Made by a program: the position numbers and the translations under genes. This document shows, one piece after another, positions 33,350-54,919 of a stretch of DNA of 64,000 nt. Below the pieces are notes generated by a model. The model made no database searches. It saw only the letters and a list, made by a program, of their open reading frames with translations, and was not told the origin of the DNA. The stretch spans positions 1,504,001 through 1,568,000 of the forward strand of contig CBDCTJ010000007.1 in the NCBI GenBank assembly GCA_965222115.1, in the 5' to 3' direction. This stretch comes from Planctomycetota bacterium. Lineage in GTDB: Bacteria > Planctomycetota > PLA2 > JAEUHO01. The first letter of the stretch is position 1. Each line of letters starts with the position of its first letter.

Positions 33350-33351
33350 TC

Positions 33352-38800: not shown

Positions 38801-41800
38801 GCACGCTTCACGAGTTAGAAGGTCGGTATAAGGAGGCCTTTGCCCGCTATCGCCGCGCGATGAATTTGATTCTCTTGCAGCGTCCCTTTGCCGATCGTGC
38901 AGCGCTTGAGAGCTTTGATGATCGCCCCTGGATGCGGTATTGGGGTGGCAAGAACCTCGACGCCTACGACGAACACTACAGCGACACGTTGCGCGCCTAT
39001 CTAGCGACCATGCCGGAGGGCGTCGAGTTACAACCGGTTATCAAGGAGCATCTCGATTGGTTGGAAAAGGACTTTGCGGAGGTCGAGGAAGCGCTTGCGA
39101 AGCGCGCGAAGGCAAAGAAGCCCTCTGATGACGACTCAAAGATCCGCGCAGCGTCGTTTCCTCGCCTCAACAGCCGTATCAAGTTGGTGAGGCGACTCGC
39201 GCTAGCAACCGGCGACCGGGCGCTGGCCGACCGCCTTGACAAACGATTGATTTCGCTTTTTCCGAAAGACCTTTCGCTGGTGAAGACGCTGGTGCGCGGT
39301 CGGCTTGGTTGGGGACTTGTGGCGAGTGCGCTGACCATGATTGAAACTGCGTCGCTTGAGGAAGATGCCGCAAGTGAGTTATTCCTATTGGCCGGCAAAC
39401 AACCAGAAAAACCCTCCGTAGCTGCACTCGCACCTAGTGAAGCCGCGCGTGTGTTGCTGGCGCCGCTCATGCGCGGCGATGAAGACACCGTGCGATCGTT
39501 GTTGCGTCGAGTCGATGCATCGGATGCAAAGAAGGACGACATTCCTCATATCAAACTGCTGGCCAAGGCCGCGGTACACATGAGTGAGCATGAGGTGCTC
39601 CTGTCGCTCGGTCGCCGCTGGCTTCACTTGTCGGCCACATCGGGATCGGGATGGTCGCGCGGCAACGAGATTCGCGACGCGCTCGACTTCTGTTGGCCTC
39701 ACTTTGACGACGTATCACGGAAGAGCCTTGTGCATCCGCTAGGACGCGTTGTCGTGAAGGAGCCGAAAGAGGCGCAGTACGTTTTACCGATCATCGAGGA
39801 CGTGCAGTCCGCGCTCGATCTTTCGTTGTTGACCGAAGAGGAGGCTAAGAAGGTCATCGATGAGTTGGTAGGGGGAAAGCGCCGCACGTCGATGTACTCA
39901 GCCGCCAAGTTCTTTGCCCTGCTGCCCAAGGACGCTCACACGGAGTTTCTGCGCAAGATTTTTGAAAAGGAGCCCATAGAACGACGTGCCCGATCCGTGA
40001 TTTGGGCGCTGGGTCAGCTAGCGGGCAAGTTGTCCGACGACGCCCTGGATTACCTCGAAGCCACCATGCGCGGCAGCATCAAGAAGATGAAGCAACCCAT
40101 GCGTTGGTGGTCCTACGGCCAGACGCTCACATCCAATGAGGCCCAGGCAGAACTCAACTTCCGTTTTCTGAAGGTCATTACCGGTGACGATCCTGAAGAG
40201 CCGCCCCACTTGGCCGCGCTCGCCCTCGCCTATCGAACGATGGGGAAGAAGGAAAAGGCGTGGACGTATGCCGAGAAAGCGTTTTCGACGTTTATGGAGC
40301 GCGGCGCCGATGACTGGACGCTCCGTGCGCCGCTGAGTCGCGTCATCGATGTGTTTGGTGAAGACCACGCAGACGCGTTTCTCAAGGTGATCGACGAACT
40401 CGAGAAGAAGAACGGGCCCAACGAGACCACCACCACGTGGAAGCTCAATCTCCTTTCGCGCGACAAGAAGCCCGAGGAGGTGCTCGCGTTGTTGGAGAAG
40501 GCGCGGAAGAAGGACCCCAAGAACAAGTCGATTCTCAATCGCTTGCAGAATCAGTATCGAGCCATGGGCAGCCCCATGGACGCTATCAAGCTTATTCAGA
40601 AGCGCCTTGAGGATGCGCCTGACGACCAGGCACTCAAGAACCAGCTCTCGACCGCGTGGAGTCGTCTCAAACATCCGATCAATGCCGAAAAGGCCAAACG
40701 TGGTAAGGACAAGAAGAAGGGGCCCTCGAAAGAGGATAAGGAGCGCGCAAAGAAGAAGTTCAAACCCGCCACTGTCAAGCGCATTAAGGAAGCGATTGAG
40801 GGCAAGCAGCTCGACAAGGCGCGGGTGCTCATGCATCAAATGTGGCGCGGCATTTCGCCTGGCACGTCACGCAATCGCTATGGCCCGGTGATTTACTACG
40901 TCAATGGTGTTCCTCAGTTGCATGGGGGCGGCTCGCTCGCGAACGCGCTGTGGCCCGAAGAGAAGAAGAAGGATCGTCGCGTTCGGCGTGGCGGACTTCC
41001 CGATTTCGAGGCCATGCGGAAGGCCGAGGTCGAACGACGCGAAAACAAGAAGGCTGACCGGCGCCTTAGTGCCTATGAAGTGCTCGTTGATCATGAGTTT
41101 GGTCGTAAGGAGATCGAGCGCGAGCTGCGCACGATGTCAGGGTCGGGATTGGAAGGCGCCAGCAATCTGTTGCGCGCCCTCAATCGCAAACGTGAAAAGG
41201 AGATCGGCAAAGAGAAGCTGATCGAAGAACTTCTTGAGCGCGTTACAAGTGGTCACGCGCGCAGCGATACGTTCTATCGGTTGCTCTTGCTTGCCGAGGA
41301 TCAGGCCGAGGCACTCAGCGACAGCGGCGAACGAATCGCCACGAGCCTCATGACCAATGTCGCGCCCGACGATTCGCGCCTCATCCTTCGGTTGGCCAGC
41401 TGTTTGGCGGCGGCAGGCAAGACCGACGCCGTGGAGCGACTGTTGCGTTGGTGCGCCAGACTGGCCACGTCCGGCGGTGGCTTTGATCCCTTCGGCGGTT
41501 ACAGCCCGCGAGCGAGCACCCACGGTGTGATTCATGCGATACGAAAGCACCTAGAGGGTGAGCAGCGCAATCGATCGATCGAGGCGGTACTCGCCATGAG
41601 TGATCCGCGCAAGCCGAAGCTCAAGCGCAGCACCGATCGCAATCCGTGGAGCAACTTCGGTGCCGACGAGTCGTATTCGACGCTGTTGCTCAATACGTGG
41701 AGCGAGGTCATAGGTGCCGAGGCCACGCTCGAGCGATTTGAGTCCATTGTGAAGCGAGCGCTAGATACCGAACGATCGGTGCAGCGAAATGCGGCAGCTA

Positions 41801-42636
41801 CCGTTGCGCGTCTCGCGGCCGCGTCGGGCAACTATGAACTCGCACTGCGTGCATTGGAAGTCGCTGTGTGCGCCTTCCCCGACTGGTCGTTCCCCGATGA
41901 CGTCAAGCGAGACCCTAGCAATCGTTACTTCTATGAGCACCGGGAGCGTATCGCGCACAACTCAAGGGGAATCGGCTCCGATATGCTGTATGCCTTGTTT
42001 GTTCGTCAACCGGATGATGGTGAGGATGCGGTTGACAATGAGGCATCGAAGACCGATGCGGACGAAGAAGACGAAGAGGATCGCAAACCCGAATCAGACG
42101 AGGACGCAGACGACGATGAGGCGATCGACGCTGCTAATGCAAAGATCGTTTGGCTCGTGCATGCGTCAGAGACCATCGATGGGTGGGTAGAAGACAAGCG
42201 GCTGAAGGCGGCGGGTGCGTTTGGCGCTCATTGCGTCATCGCCGTCGAGCTCTTTCGTGCAGGGGCCGAAGAAGAAGCCGCGGCCCTACTTACGAAGGCC
42301 CAGCAACAAGCTCATGAGAATCCGCGTTGGGCGCTGTGGATTGCCGACGCGTATCGCGAAATGGCGCAAGAGGATGAGGCCATCGCGATTGAGCGCCAAC
42401 TGCTAAAGAGTCGAACAATCTACTTGGAGCGCGTGCCCCGAGTCGTGCGTGCCGTCTTGGAACAAGACGGTCCCCAAGCGGCCCTCAAGCTCGGCAACGA
42501 CGTGTCCAGGTTTACGCTGCACCCCGATCTTTTGCGCGTGCTCATCGAGTCTGCGTCTGCGGCAAAGGACGAGAAGGCCGAAGCCACGTGGCGGGCCATG
42601 GCGAAGGAAGCCTGGCCGAAAGACGTCTTCAAATGA
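35884..42636 (+). CDS. Giant (2250 aa) secreted TPR-repeat protein
   Basis: Signal peptide and all-helical TPR-like repeats (e.g. AMAAYRKGLAAHPE, ALRLYQRAL); abuts the VWA gene (TAAATG). Confidence 0.85.
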   Translation: MTMLRDQSRTWIVVLGLFAVAASSPLNVVFAKKDKPTLDDAAKQVVAEALADKEDAENAAHNLDRTFALKAYSSAALLEHLQAVDKEDAKRARAESLLLHLYLRAGKLRDALTIAETQWKDGEAGRKLKLGELQEAAGRNAKALDTYLSLIGEAGDVGWTASLRAALLRLDGVASAGKTADKKPTANSKKPEDNKGADDGDNDNDPLNPVNILTEAVNRSPKSVREARGNRAAMVLALTGKADKARALYHVPKNAEKPVRAMLRMAQWCLHDRAWDEARTWADKAIDVATLKRDRRYAYALLTEAYRGTNDLPKLIERLLASESLSDEAQDLLIELLRETGQPEKALAFFNEEKRASLTPEIQRQFLEMLRDAGRTKDMVARYKDAIHREPERLLWRSGLSRYYLEEGTPAQAKAVWRDLLDVSKTFTPERGPWIQLGAAEEIASQGLHKLALELGERAAKHEATQFPALLFLADVHVRTGKTKLAEAVLDRFDKAAAPKAKERLQLAEVYERLGRKDRAATVLEDLRRARGEDKSEEDLDMRLAVLLSEVDRDADALNLWRHVWKRVKAPARRQYVEDRILTVAAREGELADIAVDLEERLVAGKANERESGLLIRLYTRVGDPVSAAEVLEERVKRQKSDQVKALQEQARIYLTCTDYFNYEEVVRKLIDLDPEGERDYLRQLAMSALERGRPLEARGSLRRLKQLEGGVDGAEFEAGILALGGLNDDAMAAYRKGLAAHPERIEVYLLLAKTMAAAKQKDEAIGMFQSLLTSAEKDDLFTVAVDGLLNMEAPNPVLQWARRRIVERVSNRVHRVFFYQLYGDLSEQLKENHRMVVALSESLPVAGERRGSILREIMDISSQSGFSPFYYGNRREEGGGTKLRYGRRLLLLGDVVPPQVYLDLGRAFLENDEVSVALRTFSLARDLPDFDAFRKQVAETFETAGYLPEALRLYQRALIGRAESISLLKKIGTLHELEGRYKEAFARYRRAMNLILLQRPFADRAALESFDDRPWMRYWGGKNLDAYDEHYSDTLRAYLATMPEGVELQPVIKEHLDWLEKDFAEVEEALAKRAKAKKPSDDDSKIRAASFPRLNSRIKLVRRLALATGDRALADRLDKRLISLFPKDLSLVKTLVRGRLGWGLVASALTMIETASLEEDAASELFLLAGKQPEKPSVAALAPSEAARVLLAPLMRGDEDTVRSLLRRVDASDAKKDDIPHIKLLAKAAVHMSEHEVLLSLGRRWLHLSATSGSGWSRGNEIRDALDFCWPHFDDVSRKSLVHPLGRVVVKEPKEAQYVLPIIEDVQSALDLSLLTEEEAKKVIDELVGGKRRTSMYSAAKFFALLPKDAHTEFLRKIFEKEPIERRARSVIWALGQLAGKLSDDALDYLEATMRGSIKKMKQPMRWWSYGQTLTSNEAQAELNFRFLKVITGDDPEEPPHLAALALAYRTMGKKEKAWTYAEKAFSTFMERGADDWTLRAPLSRVIDVFGEDHADAFLKVIDELEKKNGPNETTTTWKLNLLSRDKKPEEVLALLEKARKKDPKNKSILNRLQNQYRAMGSPMDAIKLIQKRLEDAPDDQALKNQLSTAWSRLKHPINAEKAKRGKDKKKGPSKEDKERAKKKFKPATVKRIKEAIEGKQLDKARVLMHQMWRGISPGTSRNRYGPVIYYVNGVPQLHGGGSLANALWPEEKKKDRRVRRGGLPDFEAMRKAEVERRENKKADRRLSAYEVLVDHEFGRKEIERELRTMSGSGLEGASNLLRALNRKREKEIGKEKLIEELLERVTSGHARSDTFYRLLLLAEDQAEALSDSGERIATSLMTNVAPDDSRLILRLASCLAAAGKTDAVERLLRWCARLATSGGGFDPFGGYSPRASTHGVIHAIRKHLEGEQRNRSIEAVLAMSDPRKPKLKRSTDRNPWSNFGADESYSTLLLNTWSEVIGAEATLERFESIVKRALDTERSVQRNAAATVARLAAASGNYELALRALEVAVCAFPDWSFPDDVKRDPSNRYFYEHRERIAHNSRGIGSDMLYALFVRQPDDGEDAVDNEASKTDADEEDEEDRKPESDEDADDDEAIDAANAKIVWLVHASETIDGWVEDKRLKAAGAFGAHCVIAVELFRAGAEEEAAALLTKAQQQAHENPRWALWIADAYREMAQEDEAIAIERQLLKSRTIYLERVPRVVRAVLEQDGPQAALKLGNDVSRFTLHPDLLRVLIESASAAKDEKAEATWRAMAKEAWPKDVFK

Positions 42637-42712
42637 TGGTTGTCGTCGGATCGTTGCGAGTAGGTTGATCGCTGCGCGGCACGGACTACGCCGCCGCATC
42701 CGGAGGACGTGC

Positions 42713-44137
42713 ATGACTCAGATTCAGCTTCAAAGTTACGGGGCTTCACGCACGGTCACCGGAAGCCGTCATTTGCTTCACTACGGGAAGAAGCGCATAC
42801 TCCTGGACTGCGGGCTGTTTCAAGGGCGTCGCGACGAATCCAACGAACGCAATCGACACATTCCCTTTGCAACCGACGCAGTGGTACTCAGTCACGCACA
42901 TATCGATCACTCGGGCGCCCTGCCGAGTCTTGTCCGCAGTGGTTTTCGCGGAAAGATTCACGCCACGCCGGCCACGCGCGACCTCTGCTACTCCATGTTG
43001 GCTGATTGCGCCAAAATTGCGGCGTCCGAAGCCCGCTATCTCAACAAGCGCCGCAAGAAGAAGCGAGGGGATCCCAAGATTCGGCCCATTTACTCAATGG
43101 CCGACGTGAAACGTACGCTCTCCCAGTTTGTTTCGCACCACTATGAAGAGGAGTTCACGGTGTTGCCCGGCATTCGCGCGCGCTTCCGTGATGCCGGCCA
43201 CATTATTGGTTCTGCAGGTGTTCTTCTCACGGCAAAGGACGCTCCCTCGATCTATTTCACCGGCGACGTTGGGCGTCGCATGTATCCGATTCTGAAAGAC
43301 CCCGAGCCGCTGCCCACGGCCGATGTTGTGATATCAGAGTGCACGTACGGCACCCGAGACCATGCCAATGCGCGCATTTCGTCCGACGAGTTGATCGAAG
43401 AAGTTCGCCGCGTCTTCGCACGGAAGGGCAAACTCCTTATCCCCGCATTTTCCGTAGGTCGCACGCAGAACATTATCTACGCCATTGCGCAGGCCTGGCA
43501 CGAAGCCAAAGCGCCGCGCGTGCCCGTGTACGTCGATTCGCCTTTGGCCGAGAAGGCCACACACGTCTTTGTGGGCCATCCGGATTGTTACGACGAAGAG
43601 ACGGAGTCGTTTCTTTCAGAAGGCGGCAAGCCGTTCTATCCCAAAGGCGTGCGCTACGTTGAATCGCGTGACGAGAGTAAGAGCCTCAACAAGAAGAAGG
43701 GGCCCATGATCATCATTGCGGGCTCGGGCATGTGCGAAGCGGGTCGCATCGTCCATCACTTGAAGCATGGACTTGACGATCCTCGCAATACCGTGTTGCT
43801 CGTAGGCTGGTGCGCGCCGCATACGTTGGGACGGCGCCTCATTGACGGACGCAATCCCGTGCGTGTGTTGGGTCGCATGGTGGATGTGCGGGCTCGTGTC
43901 AACAAGCTCAATGCCTATTCCGCACATGCGGGCCGATCCGATCTGCTTAACTTCTTGGCACCCGCGCGTCGCAAACGCTCTTCGATCTATCTCGTGCATG
44001 GGGAGGAGTCCACATGCATGGCCTTCTCCAAGAATCTGATCGACGAGGGGTTTCGGCGTGTGGTCGTTCCGGAGACCTACGCGCGCTACGACCTTGCGCC
44101 CGCAGGTGCCACCTCGGCGGCGGCTGCAGCGTCTTGA
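42713..44137 (+). CDS. MBL-fold metallo-hydrolase, beta-CASP RNA-processing type
   Basis: GASRTVTGS, LDCGLFQG, SHAHIDHSG, AGHIIGS, FTGD, ECTYG, PAFSVGRTQ, GMCEAGRIVHH, SAHA, VHGE; GGAGG RBS. Confidence 0.93.
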   Translation: MTQIQLQSYGASRTVTGSRHLLHYGKKRILLDCGLFQGRRDESNERNRHIPFATDAVVLSHAHIDHSGALPSLVRSGFRGKIHATPATRDLCYSMLADCAKIAASEARYLNKRRKKKRGDPKIRPIYSMADVKRTLSQFVSHHYEEEFTVLPGIRARFRDAGHIIGSAGVLLTAKDAPSIYFTGDVGRRMYPILKDPEPLPTADVVISECTYGTRDHANARISSDELIEEVRRVFARKGKLLIPAFSVGRTQNIIYAIAQAWHEAKAPRVPVYVDSPLAEKATHVFVGHPDCYDEETESFLSEGGKPFYPKGVRYVESRDESKSLNKKKGPMIIIAGSGMCEAGRIVHHLKHGLDDPRNTVLLVGWCAPHTLGRRLIDGRNPVRVLGRMVDVRARVNKLNAYSAHAGRSDLLNFLAPARRKRSSIYLVHGEESTCMAFSKNLIDEGFRRVVVPETYARYDLAPAGATSAAAAAS

Positions 44138-44215: not shown

Positions 44216-44791
44216 ATGGGCCCGGCCGATCGGGTGACGGTCGCATGGAGCCCCGCGATTTCAGATCCATCCACCAAATATCGCGCACTGTCGAGTCGAT
44301 GGGCCGGCCTTATTGTGCGCGCCGTGTGGTGGACCATGCTGCTGCTTCATGTCGTGGTGCTCGCCTTCGTATCGGTTGCCGTCACGCGCGACGGCGTGTC
44401 GATGCAATCTGTCGGGGATGTCGTCGCGCTCCTAGGCGCGATCGCCTTCTTCTACTTCAAGGCGCGTGATGTCGCGTGGTTACGTATTGGCGGGCGAACG
44501 AAGGGGCTGGTCGTGTGGGCGTTGCTTGCGGCGCTTGTTCATCCCCCGGCATTTCCCGCCGACGGATCATGGGCGGAGGAGATCCCGCAGTCGTTGGTCG
44601 CCGTTTGTACGGTGGTCGCCGGCGTGGCTGTTGTGACCCGCGTCATGTCGAGTCGGTTACGCATGTCCGCGCCAAACAAGCCCTCGTGGCGACGGTTGTG
44701 GCAATCGGATCCCGCGCCCATCCTGGTGCGCACACACATGGCTTGGGATGCGCGCGGACCACCTCTGTACGCGTTACCGGTAATTTCCTGA
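44216..44791 (+). CDS. Small multi-pass membrane protein with C-terminal RGPP motif (candidate arrest/leader peptide)
   Basis: About four hydrophobic segments, two with His (LLLHVV, ALVHPP); RGPP at 44753-44764 near the C-terminus; upstream of the heme operon. Start uncertain. Confidence 0.65.
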   Translation: MGPADRVTVAWSPAISDPSTKYRALSSRWAGLIVRAVWWTMLLLHVVVLAFVSVAVTRDGVSMQSVGDVVALLGAIAFFYFKARDVAWLRIGGRTKGLVVWALLAALVHPPAFPADGSWAEEIPQSLVAVCTVVAGVAVVTRVMSSRLRMSAPNKPSWRRLWQSDPAPILVRTHMAWDARGPPLYALPVIS

Positions 44792-44903
44792 CGCGGATAT
44801 CGCTTCTTCGCGCGTTCCTCTTCTGCTGCCGGTAACCCGTGCGCCGCCCCTTCAACCGTGGGCGCCGTGTCTCGATCACGTGGTCCTCGAGAGCAACCAT
44901 CCC

Positions 44904-47180
44904 ATGTCTCATGAACAGTCTGGAGGTATAGCGCCCCCGCGCACGCGCGGCGTTTTGCTTCTCAATCTCGGCTCGCCCAGCGGATGCGACCCGCGTTCGG
45001 TGCGGCGCTACTTGGCCGAGTTTCTTGCCGATCCCGAAGTGATCAAATTGCCGCGCGGTATGCGGTGGTTTGGGAAACCTCTTGCACGCATGATCGCGCG
45101 CTCTCGCGCCAAGCAATCGGCCCACGCCTATGCATCCGTATGGACCGACGATGGTTCTCCCTTGCTCGTGATTTCTGACGCGCAGGGCAGGGCGCTTGCC
45201 CATGTGTTGGGACGTGCATTCGATGTGCGGGTGGCCATGCGTTACGGTCATCCTTCCATTGATGATGTTGTTGCGTCGTTCGTCGAGGATGACATTCACG
45301 ACGTCACAGCGGTTCCGATGTATCCTCAGTTTGCCGGCGCGACCACAGGCACCGCGTTGGCCGCGCTGTATCGCGCCTTTGAACGTCACGCGCGAGACAC
45401 GGAACTTGTCGTTCGCAATGCGTGGTACGACGATGCGGGCTACATTCAGGCCCAAGTCGCGGTACTTAACGAGGCAATCGCGAAGCACGGCCTCACGCCC
45501 GACAACACCACGCTTGTATTTAGCGCCCACTCTCTGCCCGTGGCCTACATCAAGGCCGGCGATCCGTACCAAAAGCACATCGTGGAAACCGTTCACCTTG
45601 TGTCAAAGGCTCTTGGGTGGCCAGAAGAGCGCATCACGCTCGCCTACCAATCCAAGCTTGGTCCGGTGGAGTGGCTCGCGCCGCAAACCGCTGAAGTCAT
45701 CGAATCACTTGCTAAGAATGGCACGCCCAACGTTTTCGTGTGCCCCATCAGTTTCACGGCGGACTGTTTGGAGTCGCTTGAAGAGCTCGATATCCGTGGG
45801 CGCGACGTAGTCGAGGCGCACGGCAGCAACTTCCATCTTTGTCCCGCGCTCAATGATCACCCTGCGTTCATTGAAGCGCTGGCAGGAATTGTCCGACGAG
45901 GGACGCGGCCTATCGCGTTGGAATCCAAATGTTCGGATGATGCTCCCGCTCAGCTCGATGCCGACTGGATGAGCCGGTTGGTGGTCACGGGCCTATCGCG
46001 CGAGCCTGGCGCACTCGACGCATTGCGTGATGCGGGCGTCCACATTACTAACCATGTTGATGATGCCACGTTTGCCGCGAGCAAGCGCACCCACCAAGAG
46101 GTGCGCGGACTCTGCTCGGCGCTAGGGGAGCGTGGTGTCGAGCAGAGTGTGGTTGTTTCTACGTGCGCGCGTGTGGAAGCCTATTCGCTCGCCCCGGCCG
46201 CGAGGGAAACCGAACAAAGGAGAACGATCACACGCTTACAATCAACATTGCTAACGGACGTCCATGACGCCTCCCACCCTCAAGTGCACGTTGGCCATGA
46301 GGCCTACCGACACGCGGTGTTGACCGCGGCGGGGCTATTGAGCTCTTTGCCCGGCGATAACGACGTCAGGCTTCAGCTTTGCAGTGCGGCGCGCACGGCG
46401 GAAGATGTTGCCCACGGCGCAACAGCTATCGGCATGGTCATGACACGGGCAACGGAAGCCGCCCAAGCCCTGTCGGAGGCAACCACGTGGCGTGATTTCC
46501 GCGTGGGGTTTGCCGATGTCGCCTTGGATGGAATTTCTCGATCGGCTTCCGTGGACTGGACGCAGATGCGATCCGTTGTTGTGTTGGGTGGGTCCACGAC
46601 GGCGCGAAGCACAATTCACACGTTGCGAAGGCGTCATGGCGTGCGTCCTTCTCAGCTAACGGGCATCTACCGCACGCGCAGCCGTGGAAAACAGCTCAAG
46701 GCGCTACGCCAAGCGCTGCGCGGCGCAACACCGTTGCGTGTCGATCGCTACGATGACGCGCGTGTACTCGATGCGCTGGCCCATGCCGACGTAATCGTGT
46801 TCGCGCACGATGCTCGTGAACCGATCTGGTCCGCCGAACAGGCCATGACACGCAGCGCTCAGACCAAAGTGATCATTGATTTCAACTCGTTCCCATCCAC
46901 ACGAGGGTTTGAAGACGACGAATCAACCGCATTGTGGCGACTCTGCGACATTGAGGCCGTTGTGCGTGACTATGCGGCTTCACTTGCGGGTTGTGAGCGA
47001 TTCCGCGTTGCCGTCCGCGAGGCGTTGGCGTGGCTTGAAGAACACATTGGTGCCACGCGCGAGGGTCGATCCATGGACGCCCGCCCGAGAAACGACCGCG
47101 TGACATGTACGCGGAGCGGTTGCGGTTGCAAGCGCGCCTTCGTGCCCGAAGTTCGCACGCGTGTGGAGACGGTGTCGTGA
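44904..47180 (+). CDS. hemH: Ferrochelatase fused to a C-terminal glutamyl-tRNA reductase (HemA)-like domain
   Basis: HemH motifs LLNLGSP, PMYPQF, FSAHSLP, YQSKLGPVEWL, FTADCLESLEE, PALND; HemA-like motifs STCARVE, EAYRH..AAGLLSSLPGDNDVRLQL, Rossmann VVVLGG, IIDF. Confidence 0.88.
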   Translation: MSHEQSGGIAPPRTRGVLLLNLGSPSGCDPRSVRRYLAEFLADPEVIKLPRGMRWFGKPLARMIARSRAKQSAHAYASVWTDDGSPLLVISDAQGRALAHVLGRAFDVRVAMRYGHPSIDDVVASFVEDDIHDVTAVPMYPQFAGATTGTALAALYRAFERHARDTELVVRNAWYDDAGYIQAQVAVLNEAIAKHGLTPDNTTLVFSAHSLPVAYIKAGDPYQKHIVETVHLVSKALGWPEERITLAYQSKLGPVEWLAPQTAEVIESLAKNGTPNVFVCPISFTADCLESLEELDIRGRDVVEAHGSNFHLCPALNDHPAFIEALAGIVRRGTRPIALESKCSDDAPAQLDADWMSRLVVTGLSREPGALDALRDAGVHITNHVDDATFAASKRTHQEVRGLCSALGERGVEQSVVVSTCARVEAYSLAPAARETEQRRTITRLQSTLLTDVHDASHPQVHVGHEAYRHAVLTAAGLLSSLPGDNDVRLQLCSAARTAEDVAHGATAIGMVMTRATEAAQALSEATTWRDFRVGFADVALDGISRSASVDWTQMRSVVVLGGSTTARSTIHTLRRRHGVRPSQLTGIYRTRSRGKQLKALRQALRGATPLRVDRYDDARVLDALAHADVIVFAHDAREPIWSAEQAMTRSAQTKVIIDFNSFPSTRGFEDDESTALWRLCDIEAVVRDYAASLAGCERFRVAVREALAWLEEHIGATREGRSMDARPRNDRVTCTRSGCGCKRAFVPEVRTRVETVS

Positions 47181-48598
47181 GCTCTCTAGAGGTTGCCGTT
47201 GATCGCGAGGTGTTTCAGCGATACGTCGGTCTTTCACTTCCGCGGCACGTCTCCTACCCCATGCCCACATGGTGGTCGGCCTTCGACTCACGTGACGCAA
47301 AGCGTCTGATTGACCGTCGCACGGAACGCACGACGTTCCACGATTTGTCTCTGTATATCCACATTCCTTACTGCCAAGCGCTCTGCAAGTTCTGTGCGTG
47401 CTCGCGCGTGATTCAACGCAAGGAGGGGCGCGGTGCGGCGGAGCGAACGCAGGCTTATGTGGATGCGTTGGTGCGGGAGATTCGATCCGCGGGCCGCAGC
47501 AACAACGCCGCGCAGGTTAGGCAGATTCACTACGGCGGCGGCACGCCAACCTATTTGTCGATCGAACAACTCCGTGCGATCCACGATGCCATCAACGATA
47601 CGTTCGACATCGCCTCCGATGCGGAAGTCGCGATGGAGATCGATCCCCGGGTGACGAGTGACGAGCAGCTGGATTTGCTTGCCGACCGTGGCTTCAATCG
47701 ACTGTCCCTGGGCGTGCAGGACTTTGACCGGACGGTGCAAGAGCATGTCCATCGCGTGCAGCCCTACGAGCAAGTGAAGCAGATCGTGGATGCCTGTCGT
47801 GTGCGTGGGATCGCGTCCATCAATTTCGACCTGATCTATGGACTGCCGTACCAAACGATGGACACCGTGTCCGATACGCTCGCGCGTGTGATTGAACTTT
47901 CGCCCGATCGCGTGGCCTACTATCACTACGCACAGATTCCCGACACAATTGCTACCCAAGTTGCCATCCATCATCACGCCATGCCCGATTCCGACGTGAA
48001 GTTGGACATGTTCACGAAGGGCGTGCGTGTGTTCACGGAAGCCGGGTATCGATTCATTGGACTCGATCACTTTGCGCGAGACCACGAGGGGCTTGCCAAG
48101 GCTGAGGACGACGGCGGGTTGCATCGAAATTTTCAGGGCATGACCACCGGAGCGGCGCTCGATCTGGTGGCTTTCGGTGCCAGCGCAATCAGTGAGTGGC
48201 ACGACCTCGGCTATCTACAAAATGTCCGGGATCCCGTTGCCTACGTGAGCGCGATCAACGCAAACGGAACCGCCGTCCATCGTGGAATGGCGCTTTCGGA
48301 TGACGATCGCATCCGCAAGGCAGTGATTCACCAGATTTATTGCCATGCGCGAATAGTGCCCGCTCACATTGAATCCCAGTTTGACATTTCATTTGGAGCC
48401 TATTTCGAACGTGAACTCGACCAGTTGAATGACTTGGCATCAGACGGCATCGTGATTCCCGAGGCCGATGGCTCGTTCTCCATTCCGTATCCTCTGGGAC
48501 GGGTATTGATGCGCAATGTTGGTGCGATTTTCGACGCCTACTTGCCCGACGAGGCCTATCGCGTCGGATGTCGAAGCACCTACTCGACGAATGCGTGA
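47177..48598 (+). CDS. hemN: Oxygen-independent coproporphyrinogen III oxidase (radical SAM)
   Basis: PRHVSYP, LYIHIPYCQALCKFCAC, GGGTP, NRLSLGVQDF, DLIYGLP, GLDHFA, RNFQG. Confidence 0.95.
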   Translation: MSSLEVAVDREVFQRYVGLSLPRHVSYPMPTWWSAFDSRDAKRLIDRRTERTTFHDLSLYIHIPYCQALCKFCACSRVIQRKEGRGAAERTQAYVDALVREIRSAGRSNNAAQVRQIHYGGGTPTYLSIEQLRAIHDAINDTFDIASDAEVAMEIDPRVTSDEQLDLLADRGFNRLSLGVQDFDRTVQEHVHRVQPYEQVKQIVDACRVRGIASINFDLIYGLPYQTMDTVSDTLARVIELSPDRVAYYHYAQIPDTIATQVAIHHHAMPDSDVKLDMFTKGVRVFTEAGYRFIGLDHFARDHEGLAKAEDDGGLHRNFQGMTTGAALDLVAFGASAISEWHDLGYLQNVRDPVAYVSAINANGTAVHRGMALSDDDRIRKAVIHQIYCHARIVPAHIESQFDISFGAYFERELDQLNDLASDGIVIPEADGSFSIPYPLGRVLMRNVGAIFDAYLPDEAYRVGCRSTYSTNA

Positions 48599-49670
48599 AG
48601 CCATGCATCAACGCCTGCCCACAAACGATCTTGTGTTGCGTGCCGCGCGCGGCGAACCGACGCCGCGCACGCCTGTGTGGTTCATGCGTCAGGCGGGCCG
48701 CTTCGATCCTGCCTATCGCGCGCTCAAGGAACGCGAGCAGCGGCCGCTTGAGGCGATGTTCGCCGACCCCGACATAGCCACCGAGGTCACATTGCTTCCG
48801 CAACGCTATGGCGTAGATGCCCTAATTCTTTTTCAAGACATTCTCACAATCTGCGGGCCGATGGGGGCGCGCTTTGTGTTTCGGCCGGGTCCCGTTCTGG
48901 CGCATCCGATTCGAACCGCCCGTGATGTTCAGGGATTGCGTTCCATGAGCCCCGAAGACGACATGCCATATGTGTCGGCCTCGATTCGGCACGTTCTGAC
49001 TTCCGTGGATGGTGCGTTGCCGCTGCTTGGGTTTGCCGGTGCACCGCTCACCGTCGCCGCCTTCATGGTTGCGGGCGAGAGTCCAGGTGCGGACCTTGCC
49101 GACCTCCGGACGATGATGCGCGAGTCACCCGAGGCACTGCACGACCTTATGCGTCATCTCGCTGCGCACACAAGCCGCTATCTGGACATGAAAGTTCGCG
49201 CGGGCGTTCACGCCGTTCAACTCTTCGAATCCATGGCCGATCGTTTGTCTGTAGACGAATACAACACGTGGGCTCTTCCCTATCAGCAACAAGTGTTTAC
49301 GTCGATGCATGAAGCGGCCACGCGAATCATCTTCGCCAAGGGTTTTAGCGACGTTCGTGCGCTGCTTGCCAGTGGCGCCGAGTGTTTGAGTGTGTCCGGT
49401 GACGTAGACCTGCGCGTGGCTCGCGCGCGACCTGACTGTGAGACTGTGGGCATCCAAGGCAACCTTAGCAACGTCTTGCTTCGCGATGGAACGCCCGACG
49501 AAGTGGAGCGTGCCACGCGTGCGTGCATTGATGCGGGGAGGCACAGGGGCCATATCCTCAATCTCGATCACGGGCTCTTTCCTACCACGCCACCCGAGAA
49601 CGTGTCGCGCGCGATTCAAACAGCAAAAACATATGTTGTCTCTGCGCCGACAGGCCCACGCACAGCATGA
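48591..49670 (+). CDS. hemE: Uroporphyrinogen decarboxylase
   Basis: TPVWFMRQAGR, LFQDIL, GFAGAPLT, QLFES, QGNL, ILNLDHG. Confidence 0.95.
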   Translation: MREAMHQRLPTNDLVLRAARGEPTPRTPVWFMRQAGRFDPAYRALKEREQRPLEAMFADPDIATEVTLLPQRYGVDALILFQDILTICGPMGARFVFRPGPVLAHPIRTARDVQGLRSMSPEDDMPYVSASIRHVLTSVDGALPLLGFAGAPLTVAAFMVAGESPGADLADLRTMMRESPEALHDLMRHLAAHTSRYLDMKVRAGVHAVQLFESMADRLSVDEYNTWALPYQQQVFTSMHEAATRIIFAKGFSDVRALLASGAECLSVSGDVDLRVARARPDCETVGIQGNLSNVLLRDGTPDEVERATRACIDAGRHRGHILNLDHGLFPTTPPENVSRAIQTAKTYVVSAPTGPRTA

Positions 49671-51046
49671 GTGCCATTGAAACGAACGTGGCCATCGTAG
49701 GTGGTGGGATTTCAGGGCTTGTTTGCGCGTGGACGCTGGCGCGCGCGGGCACGTCGGTCGCGCTTCTTGAGGCGAGCAACGAGCTCGGTGGCTGCATGCG
49801 TACGTCCCATGGTGACGGCGTGTTGTTTGAACACGGTCCCTTCAACGTCTTGGCGAGAGCGCCTGCGTTTGTCAACTTACTACAAGCGTGTGAATCGGAC
49901 GTGGGTGTGGTGTCGCTGGCCGAGGCAAGTCGCAAACGCTATCTCGCTAAGCGTGGGGCGCTTCATGCGATTCCCATGTCGCCGTGGGGTTGGCTCAAGT
50001 CGCCGTTGCTATCACCCATGGGGCGGCTGCGCCTCTTGCGAGGTGCGCTTGTTAGTCGACGCGCGCCCAAGAGAGAAGAGACGATCCATGAGGCCGCTAC
50101 GCGACGGTTGGGACGCGATGCCGCGGAGGTACTGGTGTCATCGGCCGTGGCCGGTGTGTTTGGTGGCGACAGCAAGCAGACATCACTTGCTGCCGCGTTT
50201 CCTCACGTAAGCGACGTCGATCGGCAAACGCGGAGTCCATTGATGGCGATGGTGCGGCGCGCCAAACAGCGAAAGCGAAGCGATCAAACCCGCCCCGCAA
50301 TGATTAGCTTCAAGAACGGCTTGCAGTCACTGGCGGACTGGCTCGGCGCAAACCTCAGCGATGGCGTATACCGCGAACACTTGGTCTCCTCGATTGTGCC
50401 TCGCGACAACGGCTGGCACGTTCACGCCAAGCATCACGGTCGCGAAGTGACTGTCGAAGCAAACAAGGTCGTTCTCACCACGCCCGCACGTGCCACGGGG
50501 TTGCTCGTGCGTGAGTTGGCGCCGAACGCCTCCGAAGAGTTGATCTCGCTCCCCACGTCCACCATGGCTGTAGTCAACTTGCTCTACGCGCGAAACGACG
50601 TCGCTCATCCGTTGGATGGCTACGGATTTCTCGTCCCCAACACAGAGAGCCAGCCGAAGTGTTTGGGCGCGCTGTTCGCCGACGCGGCGTTTCCACACCA
50701 CGCGCCGGAACATCAGTGCATTGTGCGTGTGTTCTTGGGCGGTCATCGCGAACCCGACATCTTGGCGCGCACCGACAAGGAACTTCGTGCGCAGGCGCGC
50801 GAAAGTGTTGAACCGCTGCTGGGCATCTCGGCTCAGCCTCGTTTTGCGCCCGTCATGCGCTGGCCTCGCGCCATTCCGCAGTACGCGATTGGTCATGCCG
50901 AGCGCATGGCCACAGTCGAGCGCGACGTGGCTCGTTTACCGGGATTGCATCTCGTGGGCAACTACCTGCGTGGGGTGTCAATCAATGACTGCGTGCGTGA
51001 GGCCGACGCACTGGCGAGGCGCATCCTTGCGGGGGAAGCATCGTGA
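49667..51046 (+). CDS. hemG: FAD-dependent protoporphyrinogen oxidase (HemY type)
   Basis: IVGGGISGL, FEHGP, GVFGGD, SFKNGLQSL, GYGFLVP, RWPRAIPQY.IGH, GNYLRGVSINDC. Confidence 0.92.
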   Translation: MSAIETNVAIVGGGISGLVCAWTLARAGTSVALLEASNELGGCMRTSHGDGVLFEHGPFNVLARAPAFVNLLQACESDVGVVSLAEASRKRYLAKRGALHAIPMSPWGWLKSPLLSPMGRLRLLRGALVSRRAPKREETIHEAATRRLGRDAAEVLVSSAVAGVFGGDSKQTSLAAAFPHVSDVDRQTRSPLMAMVRRAKQRKRSDQTRPAMISFKNGLQSLADWLGANLSDGVYREHLVSSIVPRDNGWHVHAKHHGREVTVEANKVVLTTPARATGLLVRELAPNASEELISLPTSTMAVVNLLYARNDVAHPLDGYGFLVPNTESQPKCLGALFADAAFPHHAPEHQCIVRVFLGGHREPDILARTDKELRAQARESVEPLLGISAQPRFAPVMRWPRAIPQYAIGHAERMATVERDVARLPGLHLVGNYLRGVSINDCVREADALARRILAGEAS

Positions 51047-52077
51047 CAATCAGCGAATCCTTGGGCTCCCCGCGAGGGATACCGGAGCGTCCACGGCGCT
51101 TGCGTCGCACGCCCGTCATCGCCAATCTTGTTCGCGAGATACGTGTACACCCAAGTCAACTTGTGCTGCCCGTATTCGTTGTGGAAGGGCGCGAAATAGT
51201 TGATCCCATCGAGGCCATGCCGGGATGCGCGCGGCGTTCCATCGACGCACTGATGTCGCAATGCAAGGAAGCCTACGCATTAGGCATTCGTTCCTTTGCG
51301 CTGTTTCCCAAGATCGACGACGCATTGAAGAATCCCCAAGGATCGGAAGCGCTCAACGAAGACGGCCTTGTTTGTCGGGCCGTCCGGGCCCTGCACGACG
51401 CGCTCCCAGACGCCTGCGTATTTACCGATGTTGCACTTGACCCCTTCTCGTCCCACGGGCACGATGGACTCGTGGCCGACGATGGTCGCGTACTCAACGA
51501 TGAAACCGTTGACATCTTGGCTCGCATGGCCGTTGTACACGCGAAGGCGGGCGCCGACTTTGTGGCGCCGTCCGACATGATGGACGGACGCGTGGGGGCG
51601 ATTCGACGCGCATTGGATGGCGACGGGTATTACGACGTGGGCATTCTCTCGTATTGCGCCAAGTACGCGTCGGCGTTCTATGGACCGTTTCGCGAAGCGC
51701 TCGATTCCGCACCCGTCGATCTTGCGCACGTACCGAAAGACAAGACGACCTATCAGATGGATCCAGCCAATGCGCGTGAAGCGTTGCGCGAAGCAAGGCT
51801 CGACGAGCAAGAGGGCGCAGACCTATTGATGGTGAAACCTGCACTGCCCTACCTCGATATCGTGCATCGACTGTCCATCGCTTCATCGCTGCCTATTGCG
51901 GCGTACCACGTGAGTGGTGAGTACGCGATGGTGCGTGCCGCCGGGGAGCGCGGCTGGCTCGATGCCGACGCCTGCATGCGCGAGTCGTTGATTGCTATCG
52001 CGCGGGCGGGCGCGCGCGTGATCTTTACTTACGCGGCCGTGGACTACGCGCGCTGGTGGCGTTCCACAATGGCTTGA
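51043..52077 (+). CDS. hemB: Porphobilinogen synthase (Asp-type metal site, Zn-independent form)
   Basis: RPRRLR, DVALDPFSSHGHDG, APSDMMDGRV, KYASAFYGPFR, YQMD, MVKP, YHVSGEYAM. Confidence 0.97.
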   Translation: MTISESLGSPRGIPERPRRLRRTPVIANLVREIRVHPSQLVLPVFVVEGREIVDPIEAMPGCARRSIDALMSQCKEAYALGIRSFALFPKIDDALKNPQGSEALNEDGLVCRAVRALHDALPDACVFTDVALDPFSSHGHDGLVADDGRVLNDETVDILARMAVVHAKAGADFVAPSDMMDGRVGAIRRALDGDGYYDVGILSYCAKYASAFYGPFREALDSAPVDLAHVPKDKTTYQMDPANAREALREARLDEQEGADLLMVKPALPYLDIVHRLSIASSLPIAAYHVSGEYAMVRAAGERGWLDADACMRESLIAIARAGARVIFTYAAVDYARWWRSTMA

Positions 52078-52712
52078 GCGAGCGCCTCAAGCGACGGCGT
52101 GGGCGCCTCCACCCAGAGTTCATGACCCGCGGACTGGACAGCCCGACTTGTTGTGGGGCCAAGGCTGGCAAAGGGTCGTGTTTCGTTCTTCAGCGCGGAG
52201 ACGGCCGATGGACTCGTAACGGCAATCACCGTCGCAGATGATACGCGGTCGAAGTCAAACGCGCGCCGCGTTGTTTCATAGACGATGGGTGCCGAGAACG
52301 ATGAAAACCCGTGCGACGTAGGAACGTCTGCGAGATTCGAGCGCGCATACACGACGCGACCGGTGGGGGACTTCCTTCGTAGCGACGTAAAGAGTGCGTC
52401 AACGCCGGGACCCGGACCCATCAGCGCGCACCGTGCGCCGCGCGCTTCGAGAGCATTCTTTGTAGCTGGACCCACGGCGGCGAGTTTCGGTGTGTGCAAC
52501 ATGTGTTCCGGCAGTGCGTCAACCGCGAATGCACTCGTAAGGACGAGCCAGTCGTTTTCACAAAGCGATTCAAAATCAACGGGAAGCTCGTCCACCACGC
52601 GACGTTCGAGTACGGGTTCCAGGAGAACGTCTACGCCAGCATTGCGTAATGCACGTGAAAGGGGGCCACCCTCGGATTCATCTCGCGTGACCCATACGCG
52701 CAAGCCGTCCAC
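52044..52712 (-). CDS. hemD: Uroporphyrinogen-III synthase
   Basis: VWVTR, LTSAFAV, AVGPATKNAL, VYET, TSPSAV, LGPTT; downstream of hemC. Confidence 0.9.
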   Translation of the reverse strand: MDGLRVWVTRDESEGGPLSRALRNAGVDVLLEPVLERRVVDELPVDFESLCENDWLVLTSAFAVDALPEHMLHTPKLAAVGPATKNALEARGARCALMGPGPGVDALFTSLRRKSPTGRVVYARSNLADVPTSHGFSSFSAPIVYETTRRAFDFDRVSSATVIAVTSPSAVSALKNETRPFASLGPTTSRAVQSAGHELWVEAPTPSLEALAQAIVERHQRA

Positions 52713-52715
52713 TGA

Positions 52716-53612
52716 CTAGTCCTCACTCAGGGTATCGGCGTCGATCAGCATGCGCGCCAACTCGCGACCGACGCGTTCCGGGTCACGGCCAACGTGGGTG
52801 CCCGAGCCCACAAGCGTGCCCTCTGTCGTAAACAACTGTCCGTGCAACGAAATGACGTCACTGGCAATCGACGCCAACGCACCAATGGGCGTTTGGCATC
52901 CCGCTTCCGCCTCATGCATGAATGCGCGTTCCGCGGTGACGGCCTTGCGTACCGTTGCATCGTCCAGATCCGAGACGAGCACATGCGCGGCGCCATCGGC
53001 GCGTGTTTGCACCGCAAGCGCTCCTTGCGCGGGTGCGGGCACGAACTGAAATGCTGGTAGTACCAGTGAACATTCCGGTTCGATGCCGAGGCGGCGTACG
53101 CCGGCCGCGGCTAATACGATGGCGTCTAAGTTGCCTTCGTGAAGTCGTTTGATGCGGGTGGGCACGTTGCCACGAATAGGGACGACCGTATGCGCCGCTT
53201 CCAGCAAGAGCTGTGCGCGGCGACGGGCACTGCCGGTGCCAATCGTCATGGGTGACTTTAAGCCATCGAGCGTGACAGGTCGTTTGGCGATGAGCAGGTC
53301 TTCTACCGCCGCGCGCGAGGGTACTGCTGCGATTGCGAGTCCCTCGGGAGACGTAGTCGGAAGATCCTTCATGCTATGAACGGCGACGTCGATCGTTCCT
53401 TCGAGTAGCGCATGTTCCAATACGCTCACGAATGCGCCGCGTTCCCAGCCCGCTTCGGACGGTACGCTGCCTTGCGAGGCATCGCCCACCGTCTTGACGA
53501 CCACGGTTTCGATTTTGAGCGTCGGATGACTGCGCGCAATGGCGGCCGCAACCCAGGCGGTTTGCGTTCGTGCCAAAGCACTGCCTCGTGTTCCCAGTCG
53601 AAGCGTTGTCAC
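52716..53612 (-). CDS. hemC: Hydroxymethylbilane synthase (porphobilinogen deaminase)
   Basis: GTRGSALARTQ, AVHSMKDLP, GTGSARR, IRGNVPTR, PAPAQGAL, GCQTPIG. Confidence 0.96.
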   Translation of the reverse strand: MTTLRLGTRGSALARTQTAWVAAAIARSHPTLKIETVVVKTVGDASQGSVPSEAGWERGAFVSVLEHALLEGTIDVAVHSMKDLPTTSPEGLAIAAVPSRAAVEDLLIAKRPVTLDGLKSPMTIGTGSARRRAQLLLEAAHTVVPIRGNVPTRIKRLHEGNLDAIVLAAAGVRRLGIEPECSLVLPAFQFVPAPAQGALAVQTRADGAAHVLVSDLDDATVRKAVTAERAFMHEAEAGCQTPIGALASIASDVISLHGQLFTTEGTLVGSGTHVGRDPERVGRELARMLIDADTLSED

Positions 53613-54919
53613 TCGGCTATCTCTTGCAGCGACTCGCGGGCGGCACTCACGATTTGATCGATGTCGGTTTCGGTGTGGGCCGAGGAAACGAAGAATGCCT
53701 CGTAGCTACTTGGCGGAAGCCATACGCCACGCGCCAACATGGCGTGGAAGAATGCTGCGTAGCGCTTGTGATCACACGCGGTGGCATCGACATAGTCGCG
53801 CACCGGTTTCTTGGAGAACGACAGGCCGAGCATGCCGCCAAGCGCATGGGTATGGAGTGGAATCTGTAAGTCTGCGCCGGCATTCGCAATGCCATCGGCG
53901 AGACGTTGCGAAGTGGCGTGCAACTCGTCATAGAAGCGCGGGGCTTGACACAGTTTGAGCGTGGCAAGGCCACTCGCCATGCCAAGTGGATTGCCGCTCA
54001 ACGTTCCCGCTTGATACATAGGCCCGAGCGGGCTCACGAGTTCCATGATCTCGCGCCGTGCGCCATACGCTGCAACGGGCATGCCGCCGCCCATGACTTT
54101 ACCTAAGCACGTAATGTCGGGCTTGATGTTGGCGTGTACTTGGTAGCCGCCCCACGCGACGCGAAAGCCCGTCATCACCTCGTCGAACACAAGCATGGCG
54201 CCGTACTTGGTGCAGAGTTCGCGAAGTCCTTCCAGGTAGCCGACCACGGGCGCCACAAAGCCCATGTTGCCCGCTACGGGCTCAACCATAATGCCCGCGA
54301 TGTCGTCACCCTGTTCACGGAACAGTGCCTCCACCGCTTCGAGATCATTGAACGGCACAAGTAGCGTCCCCGATGCAACCGGCGCCGGAACGCCCGCGGA
54401 GTTTGGCACGCCTGTCGTTGCTGCACCCGATCCCGCCGCCACGAGCAAACCATCGGCATGACCGTGGTAACAACCGATCATCTTGACGATTTTGGTGCGC
54501 GCGGTGGCCGCTCGCGCAAGTCGCATAGCACTCATGGTTGCCTCGGTGCCGCTGTTTACGAACCGGAGCATGTCCATACTAGGCAGTGCATCGAGGATCA
54601 ACTCTGCGAGTTCGGTCTCAAGTGCGCAGCATGCGCCAAAGCTCAGGCCGTTCGCAGCCGCTTCCTGTACGGCATCGACGACTGCGGGATGGGCATGGCC
54701 CACGATGGCGGGTCCCCAACTCCCAACCAGATCGAGGTAGCGATTGCCATCCACATCGATGATCGTGGCGCCGCTTGCGGACTTTACGAAGGCTGGCGTA
54801 CCTCCCACGGAGCCGAAGGCGCGCACGGGACTGTTGACGCCACCAACCAGCACCCGCTGCGCGCGCTCAAACATGATGGTGGATCGGGATCGTGGTGTGG
54901 AACTGTCAGACGCTTGCAT
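53609..54919 (-). CDS. hemL: Glutamate-1-semialdehyde 2,1-aminomutase
   Basis: GGVNSPVRAF, SWGP, NSGTEATM, YHGH, FDEVMTGFR, GKVMGGG, YQAGTLSGNP. Confidence 0.97.
   Translation of the reverse strand: MQASDSSTPRSRSTIMFERAQRVLVGGVNSPVRAFGSVGGTPAFVKSASGATIIDVDGNRYLDLVGSWGPAIVGHAHPAVVDAVQEAAANGLSFGACCALETELAELILDALPSMDMLRFVNSGTEATMSAMRLARAATARTKIVKMIGCYHGHADGLLVAAGSGAATTGVPNSAGVPAPVASGTLLVPFNDLEAVEALFREQGDDIAGIMVEPVAGNMGFVAPVVGYLEGLRELCTKYGAMLVFDEVMTGFRVAWGGYQVHANIKPDITCLGKVMGGGMPVAAYGARREIMELVSPLGPMYQAGTLSGNPLGMASGLATLKLCQAPRFYDELHATSQRLADGIANAGADLQIPLHTHALGGMLGLSFSKKPVRDYVDATACDHKRYAAFFHAMLARGVWLPPSSYEAFFVSSAHTETDIDQIVSAARESLQEIAE

Follow-up and report, generated by a model that had tools for sequence, protein, structure and literature searches.

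A single open reading frame (ORF) in a 64,000-nucleotide stretch of a Planctomycetota genome (GTDB lineage PLA2, JAEUHO01; assembly GCA_965222115.1, contig CBDCTJ010000007.1, positions 1,504,001 to 1,568,000 of the forward strand; hereafter the window, to which all positions refer) joins a ferrochelatase, the last enzyme of heme synthesis, to a region resembling glutamyl-tRNA reductase (GluTR), the first. The best explanation, to which we assign a probability of ca. 0.7, is that the product is a bifunctional ferrochelatase/GluTR whose divergent GluTR half has been missed by annotation and would be the organism's only route to 5-aminolevulinic acid (ALA). The gene and its parts, with residues counted from the ATG, are as follows (pLDDT, predicted local distance difference test).

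44904..47180, + strand: fusion ORF of 758 amino acids (aa), with ferrochelatase, linker, divergent GluTR-like region and Cys-containing tail
44946..45899, + strand: ferrochelatase domain, residues 15-332 (Pfam, NCBIfam)
45519..45539, + strand: FSAHSLP, which holds the conserved ferrochelatase His, residue 209 (motif scan, alignments)
45762..45791, + strand: DCLESLEELD, the ferrochelatase acidic/Glu motif, intact here and gone in pseudo-ferrochelatase relatives
45918..45950, + strand: linker between the domains, residues 339-349 (full-length model with pLDDT under 50 here)
45975..47048, + strand: GluTR-like region, ca. residues 358-715, with catalytic and Rossmann-type domains plus a short helical hairpin (Pfam, phmmer, model)
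46158..46178, + strand: STCARVE, residues 419-425, with its Cys codon at 46164-46166 (motif scan, alignments)
46326..46379, + strand: AAGLLSSLPGDNDVRLQL, residues 475-492, substrate-pocket segment (motif scan, alignments)
46584..46610, + strand: LGGSTTARS, containing the loop GGSTT(S/A) at the beta1-alphaA turn (alignments, model)
46665..46688, + strand: IYRTRSRG, the YR(T/G) motif, aligned with NRT of the M. kandleri GluTR nucleotide-binding domain
46872..46901, + strand: IIDFNSFPST, the invariant motif D-F-N..(G)S(T) (alignments)
47106..47132, + strand: CTRSGCGCK, the Cys-containing tail (low-confidence model segment; alignments)

The original prediction, made from the letters alone, held that the ferrochelatase reads in frame into the GluTR-like half, and this is borne out. 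The ORF is one open frame that translates without a stop into 758 aa from its ATG (with an alternative GTG start in frame at 44880 it would be 8 aa longer), both Pfam domains lie in it, and the ferrochelatase is joined to the two-domain GluTR fold by an in-frame linker of ca. 25 residues. Positions 44800-47300 were matched with 0 substitutions and 0 indels by Logan contigs from four runs (one study, two samples), and the junction at ca. 45900-45980 is bridged by contigs of all four. A fusion created by assembly or sequencing error, neighbouring hemH and hemA genes being merged by a lost stop or a frameshift, is a generic worry for metagenome-derived assemblies for which no support was found here, and the base-for-base agreement across the junction speaks against it. 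Since these runs may include the source data of the assembly itself, stronger support for the junction comes from the recurrence of the fused architecture in many unrelated assemblies: it is seen in 30 of 50 scanned representatives of the family, GlutR_N and ferrochelatase share an open frame at most of the 16 loci described below, and Pfam found both domains in one ORF at all four loci that were checked (L036, L038, L041 and L043). The artefact reading is effectively refuted.

The N-terminal half matches the Pfam Ferrochelatase profile (PF00762) over residues 15-332, with an E value of 2e-98 and 329.8 bits (cut-off 27), from position 2 to position 315 of the 317 in the profile, and it scores 286.6 bits with the NCBIfam hemH model TIGR00109, whose equivalog cut-off is 124.6. 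The active-site His motif FSxHSxP and the acidic motif DCLE(T/S)LEE are both intact; we take His209 to be catalytic and the acidic motif to belong to the active site. The domain thus resembles HemH/PpfC in being full-length, above the equivalog cut-off and intact in both motifs, but it carries a C-terminal GluTR-like extension of ca. 420 residues and resembles the ferrochelatase of other fusions more than the hemH products of its own relatives. In the window genome (4.55 Mb in 7 contigs, estimated to be 90% complete) the PF00762 search returned only the fusion gene and ChdC had no match; with HemN and the HemY-type oxidase also encoded, it is this context from which iron insertion into protoporphyrin IX is predicted. 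The best reading of this half is a putative working protoporphyrin ferrochelatase, which would be the only one of the cell.

The C-terminal half is recognized by Pfam GlutR_N over residues 398-525 (E value 2.1e-12, 47.5 bits, gathering cut-off 27). The Cys of TCxRxE is the nucleophile of GluTR, and in the alignment of the fusions T420, C421, R423 and E425 are invariant; the canonical Asn position of TCNRxE is Ala in the window protein and variable across its relatives. EAYRH lies at residues 466-470, while in the substrate-pocket segment G477, S480 and Q491 are invariant and D485 takes the Glu position of canonical GluTR. The GluTR motifs quoted in the original prediction, including the Cys codon, are found where it had placed them, and motif scan and alignments agree with it that Cys, Arg, His, Ser and Gln are kept and that Glu has become Asp. 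The altered NADPH motif that it reported is found as well, GGSTTA (residues 562-567) pairing with G-A-G-E-M-G of the M. kandleri enzyme (1gpj) in the phmmer alignment. The Arg of the canonical NRT contacts the 2'-phosphate of NADPH; in the YR(T/G) motif aligned with it, Tyr is invariant and Arg nearly invariant across the clade defined below.

A phmmer search of Protein Data Bank (PDB) sequences with the 414-residue C-terminal piece found M. kandleri GluTR 1gpj (E value 3e-4, query residues 59-378). The crystallized 1gpj protein is reported to have Ser, as a variant, at the position of the nucleophile Cys. From a 19-row alignment AlphaFold2 gave a confident model of residues 345-758 (pLDDT 85.6; predicted template modelling score, pTM, 0.84), and in a Foldseek search of the PDB the best seven matches of this model are all GluTR, with E values from 4.5e-14 to 1e-11. 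VIA-align gave a Z score of 26.2 to Arabidopsis GluTR with NADPH (5yjl_A; 320 residues aligned, root-mean-square deviation 4.4), of 26.0 to 4n7r, 25.2 to 5che and 17.7 to 1gpj, whereas the first matches other than GluTR were unrelated Rossmann proteins at ca. 14.6, aligned with the second domain alone. The structure prediction called for in the original prediction has thus returned the GluTR fold, and in the model the Rossmann fold is kept despite the changed loop. The alignment to 5yjl_A stops at chain residue 439, which places the dimerisation domain outside it, and beyond residue ca. 715 the tail is of low confidence in both the C-terminal and the full-length models.

Taken beside canonical HemA/GtrA (1gpj of M. 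kandleri; 4n7r, 5yjl and 5che of Arabidopsis), the window protein shares the catalytic and Rossmann-type fold, TCxRxE, the pocket of His, Ser, G(D/E) and Gln, the Arg of NRT/YRT and a C5-pathway context with hemL. It differs in having GGSTT(S/A) instead of GxGxxG, no spinal-helix/dimerisation domain, a clade with a variable residue at the Asn of TCNRxE, scores far under the hemA cut-offs, a separate phylogenetic position and fusion to ferrochelatase. By profile score, loop and missing dimerisation domain it falls outside the curated HemA equivalog family, yet the GluTR half most likely works like HemA.

Searched exhaustively with HMMER against 1.84 billion representatives, the C-terminal piece had 211 matches at E values of at most 1e-3, 75 at 1e-10 or less and 28 at 1e-30 or less, many of them in the C-terminal halves of proteins of 600-800 aa; a word-indexed homologue search with residues 345-758 returned the query only. 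When 50 of the 150 listed HMMER matches were scanned with Pfam, all contained GlutR_N; the 30 with a ferrochelatase match include 12 strong ones (E value of at most 1e-40), one carries a SirC-like NAD_binding_7 domain and 19 have GlutR_N alone. One of the ferrochelatase-bearing proteins, P0003 with 1269 aa, combines ferrochelatase, the GluTR-like region and a radical-SAM/HemN-like domain. Several proteins of the GlutR_N-alone class hold the C-terminal end of a ferrochelatase and several are separated by a very short tree distance from fused ones (e.g. P0023/P0024), and many of the short stand-alone members are probably truncated gene calls. In this group the GluTR-like domain mostly comes fused to a ferrochelatase or to a dead, ferrochelatase-like counterpart (see below).

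We define this clade by the motifs GGSTT(S/A), YRG/T, DFNxxGS and TxWG, by the missing dimerisation domain and by more than 250 bits on a dedicated profile (A1). Its members keep T-C-x-R-x-E, the His, the Ser, G(D/E)xx(V/I)xxQ and the final Gln; they lack GxGxx(G/A) and have in its place an invariant G-G-S-T-T-(S/A), set at the beta1-alphaA turn by the secondary structure of the AlphaFold2 model, and TxWG and DFNxxGS are invariant too. On profile A1 the members score 250-508 bits and canonical GluTR 70-118; the window protein, with all the clade motifs, scores 407.9. In a maximum-likelihood tree of 94 of the 151 domain sequences (57 with fewer than 270 profile positions or starting after position 70 were dropped), 31 canonical sequences are separated from 63 clade sequences with an SH-aLRT support of 100 and, when the tree is rooted on the canonical group, the window domain branches off first within the clade. 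The hemA cut-offs are missed by all seven further clade members tested, which explains why public records say just "ferrochelatase": this is the only name given to four such fusion proteins at NCBI. Both the GGSTT(S/A) loop and the lack of a dimerisation domain are traits conserved in the family and thus not signs of decay, and this conservation indicates that the GluTR half of the clade is under selection.

Nested within the clade is a group of short stand-alone proteins of 351-378 aa (P0080-P0083, P0088, P0094, P0109, P0112, P0124 and P0131) that have TCNRFE and GSGSTA and score 150-187 bits on profile A1; they form a long branch beside P0007, P0048 and P0053, their amino-acid make-up is unusual, and some are named glutamyl-tRNA reductase by JGI. 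Cys-rich segments were also observed in several other clade members, as CxxC...CxC(H) in N-terminal extensions of the fusions P0015, P0043, P0054, P0058 and L043:4726-7206 and as CxxC tails in P0013, P0027 and P0031; these, like CTRSGCGC in the window tail, could be metal or Fe-S sites.

Except for a recognizable GluTR, the complete C5, protoporphyrin-dependent route is present in the organism: the window holds hemL, hemB, hemC, hemD, hemE, hemN and a HemY-type oxidase gene and, as had been noted from the sequence, no stand-alone hemA. A genome-wide search found one GlutR_N match, the fusion gene, and no ALA synthase above the cut-off, three lower matches reaching 242-295 bits against 338.55. 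A peptide pattern drawn from a 6-row alignment (A2) and applied to species-representative genomes gave at least 16 loci, a sample biased to that motif; record titles assign 12 to Planctomycetota (Phycisphaerae included) and 2 to Gemmatimonadota and leave 2 unclassified. No GlutR_N match other than the clade member occurs in 14 of the 16 genomes, the exceptions being G049, with two weak GlutR_N matches, and G053, with an extra match of 122 bits. hemL occurs in all 16 (above cut-off in 13), and none of 17 clade-bearing genomes tested has an ALA synthase above the cut-off. Likewise, 12 of the 16 genomes have no ferrochelatase match besides the fused one (10 at full strength, 1 cut by a contig end and 1 weak).

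Among 401 sampled genomes of the organism's own phylum, true members were found only in the window genome (410 bits) and in G307 (319 bits), the next best score being 108 bits; in G307, which is 98% complete, the fusion is the only GlutR_N match. The family of the genome carrying locus L036 was sampled with 41 genomes, which divide as follows when GlutR_N matches of at least 96 bits are taken as canonical-level.

Clade member and no canonical-level GlutR_N: 13 genomes
Clade member and a canonical-level match of 122-134 bits: 6 genomes
Canonical-level match alone: 19 genomes
Ambiguous: 1 genome
No match: 2 genomes

In this family (G431-G468) many of the canonical-scoring GlutR_N matches lie in frames of just 347-403 aa, so that its ordinary hemA may be short at the C-terminus too. 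Pooled over distinct clade-bearing genomes, 28 of 34 have no canonical-level GluTR, a descriptive proportion that is not to be taken as a statistical test.

The scheme that we infer for the C-terminal half is that of a working, non-canonical GluTR, the only one of the cell. Cys421 would attack Glu-tRNA(Glu) to give a thioester, which would be reduced to glutamate-1-semialdehyde and passed to HemL. A Rossmann domain with GGSTT(S/A) in place of GxGxxG as its phosphate loop would house the hydride donor, and the half would need no canonical dimerisation domain at its C-terminus to function. The one argument for the predicted formation of glutamate-1-semialdehyde from Glu-tRNA(Glu) is the pathway hole; a literature search on the thioester and esterase chemistry of GluTR returned nothing relevant. 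An unlikely alternative is that this half is no reductase but a regulatory or sensor module, or an esterase of Glu-tRNA only; it would bind Glu-tRNA or a tetrapyrrole and tune the ferrochelatase or report precursor supply, ALA being made from the product of an unassembled gene or of a gene of a novel type.

Several observations weigh against the bifunctional reading. According to passages of PMC4726326, GluTR consists of a catalytic, an NADPH-binding and a dimerisation domain. Since the canonical enzyme has both a GxGxxG loop and a dimerisation domain, their loss counts here: the window loop lacks the second and third Gly, and the HMM scan of the ORF, in which Ferrochelatase and GlutR_N were found, gave neither GlutR_dimer nor Shikimate_DH at E values of at most 1. 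The dimerisation domain, described in the original prediction as shortened, is indeed not canonical but is to be regarded as absent. All the hemA equivalog models are missed, at 44-51 bits against cut-offs of 209-429 (TIGR01035, 44 against 209.55; NF000750, 50.8 against 289; NF000744, 48.3 against 429). Six of the 34 clade-bearing genomes hold a canonical-scoring GluTR as well, which means that the two types are not strictly exclusive and that the clade member is not always the sole candidate, and a completeness of 90% leaves room for an unassembled hemA in the window genome when this is taken alone. These points equally favour a half that is not a reductase, as does the fact that the family does make pseudo-enzyme domains, though on the ferrochelatase side. 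To them are added that the clade-bearing genomes are mostly metagenome-assembled, with completeness not established, and that many are close kin, so that the 28 of 34 are not independent counts; that no RNA run holding this stretch was among the sequencing runs listed; and that the full-length AlphaFold2 model, with good domains (pLDDT 80.6), a pTM of 0.51 and a disordered linker, has no confident arrangement of one domain against the other and thus predicts no fixed interface.

Against the non-reductase alternative stand the invariance of the nucleophile Cys and of the pocket residues across a deep clade, and the retention of the Rossmann fold, of the Arg aligned with NRT and of a conserved loop at the phosphate-binding turn. 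It would also leave 28 of the 34 genomes, including the one that is 98% complete, with hemL and the downstream pathway but with no source of substrate. The original prediction had left two possibilities, a fusion that supplies the GluTR of the pathway and couples heme output to ALA input, or one that carries a pseudo-enzyme regulatory module. In the former, the supply of GluTR is supported by the sole GlutR_N match, the lack of an ALA synthase above cut-off, the presence of hemL and the rest of the pathway, the conserved catalytic positions and the distribution over genomes, while the coupling is conjectural; the latter is disfavoured for the GluTR half, whose odd features are family traits and whose sister group has its pseudo-enzyme in the ferrochelatase half.

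Fusions with a weak ferrochelatase match have a degenerate N-terminal domain, and those of them that carry a taxonomic label (P0008, L038 and L041) are from Gemmatimonadota. An alignment of 6 strong with 19 weak or unmatched sequences indicates that the degenerate domain has lost ca. 70 N-terminal residues, the His of FSxHSxP and the acidic motif DCLETLEE and has kept structural motifs and the linker. The Gemmatimonadota fusions are like the window protein in their GluTR clade, linker and overall architecture but, whereas its ferrochelatase is intact, theirs is by these losses predicted to be catalytically dead. One genome of this type (G044) has a separate intact ferrochelatase as well; for another (G047) the genome search gave no intact match. 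The genes next to the L038 fusion are of SirC-like and CobB/CobQ-like amidotransferase type, not hemN-hemE-hemY. Dead-domain fusions were further observed in P0005, P0008, P0011-P0051 and others, and at L038:5011-7020 and L041:4600-7020; in P0032 the His and acidic motifs are missing despite a strong Pfam ferrochelatase score. The persistence of a dead ferrochelatase fold on GluTR suggests, by inference, that the fold serves the GluTR half in a structural or regulatory role.

This bears on a further alternative, which differs from the bifunctional reading solely in denying any coupling: both halves would be active and their fusion mechanistically meaningless, an accident kept by drift that fixes no more than co-expression and stoichiometry. 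The disordered linker and low pTM of the full-length model would fit it, translational coupling of neighbouring hem genes is common in any case, as the overlap of the hemN start with the fusion stop (see below) illustrates, and the triple fusion P0003 suggests a loose joining of the "beads on a string" type. We nevertheless find it improbable, as the Gemmatimonadota-type domain is still fused to GluTR after losing ca. 70 residues and both motifs, and G044 keeps such a fusion beside its separate intact ferrochelatase.

GluTR (HemA) is the usual point of heme feedback control. A bolder version of the bifunctional reading, which we put forward as doubtful, is that the ferrochelatase fold, active or dead, may be an obligate partner of the GluTR half, taking over from the lost dimerisation domain and sensing tetrapyrroles from within the protein; ALA synthesis would be gated by protoporphyrin or heme bound in the chelatase pocket, and the GGSTT(S/A) loop may bind the reductant in a new way. 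If so, end-product feedback from the last to the first step of heme synthesis would be hard-wired within one polypeptide. A predicted complex of the ferrochelatase half with the GluTR half scored 0.29 (mark 0.32), a value that counts neither for nor against contact between them.

The fusion gene is surrounded by the rest of the pathway.

44216..44791, + strand: small predicted membrane ORF of 191 aa without Pfam or NCBIfam match, directly upstream of the fusion
47177..48598, + strand: hemN (oxygen-independent coproporphyrinogen oxidase), GTG start at 47177
48516-49670, + strand: hemE
49667-51046, + strand: HemY-type protoporphyrinogen oxidase
51043-52077, + strand: hemB
52044-52712, - strand: hemD
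52716-53612, - strand: hemC
53609-54919, - strand: hemL

The GTG of hemN overlaps the TGA stop of the fusion (GTGA, 47177-47180), which is consistent with translational coupling; an alternative ATG in the same frame lies at 47105. In two other Planctomycetota (L036 and L043) Pfam found the order of the window, namely a small ORF (177-201 aa, no family match), the fusion, hemN, hemE, hemY and hemB, and ORF sizes suggest the same order followed by hemD on the minus strand in L042, L045 and L046. The small upstream ORF has weak matches (E values from 5e-5 to 2e-7) at the same position in Planctomycetota L040, L043, L047 and L049, and in the Atlas it falls in unnamed clusters, with Planctomycetota as the commonest taxon in the top one.

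Canonical GlutR_N is found in 22 of 24 relatives of the same family, with E values from 1e-26 to 1e-43 against 3.6e-13 in the window genome, and none of the 24 has a clade member; the hits of a single-protein search in 40 relatives were all weak ones to canonical hemA. One relative (G006) has hemA, hemN and hemH within 6 kb of one another. The ferrochelatase domain of the window protein is 50% identical to that of the G307 fusion and 36-39% identical to the stand-alone hemH of four same-family relatives; for hemN the values are 52% (the G307 gene adjoining its fusion) and 38-41%, whereas hemB is 44% identical to that of G307 and 49-51% to those of same-family relatives. This pattern indicates that the fusion and hemN, at least, have a history separate from that of the organism, and it fits an arrival of the two by horizontal transfer, in which they would have displaced the native hemA and hemH.

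Upstream of the locus, the window also encodes a 562-aa beta-CASP/metallo-beta-lactamase ribonuclease-like protein (42449-44137, + strand), whose best NCBIfam matches, to a type VII CRISPR Cas14 model (377.8 bits, cut-off 800) and to archaeal aCPSF1 (275.6 bits, cut-off 580), both lie far below cut-off. It is preceded by a 2250-aa ORF with tetratricopeptide repeats (35884-42636, + strand) and, before this, by an 855-aa ORF (33316-35883) with a von Willebrand/chelatase-D-like segment.

No description of a HemH-HemA fusion or of this GluTR clade was found in print, in a search that mostly did not reach subscription journals, which agrees with the original prediction, where no characterized fusion of this kind was known. 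HemH-HemQ (CpfC-ChdC) of Cutibacterium acnes is the only ferrochelatase fusion mentioned in the fusion-related passages of a 2026 review (PMC13564367). In it, too, ferrochelatase is naturally fused to a second enzyme of heme synthesis, but the steps joined are two consecutive terminal ones, whereas the fusion of the window joins the last step to the first committed one.

These data point to an annotation gap, in that the first committed tetrapyrrole enzyme of these Planctomycetota and Gemmatimonadota genomes would be invisible to curated models; with "ferrochelatase" as its only public name, pathway reconstructions would wrongly call the organisms ALA or heme auxotrophs. A natural GluTR lacking both the GxGxxG loop and the domain of the V-shaped dimer would offer a test of what the two features are for. 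At the level of evolution, the locus fits a heme module of two genes, or more, that displaced native genes by horizontal transfer. Finally, the covalent link to ferrochelatase, kept in a sister lineage after the apparent death of the chelatase, makes control of the entry step by the end of the pathway testable within one protein.

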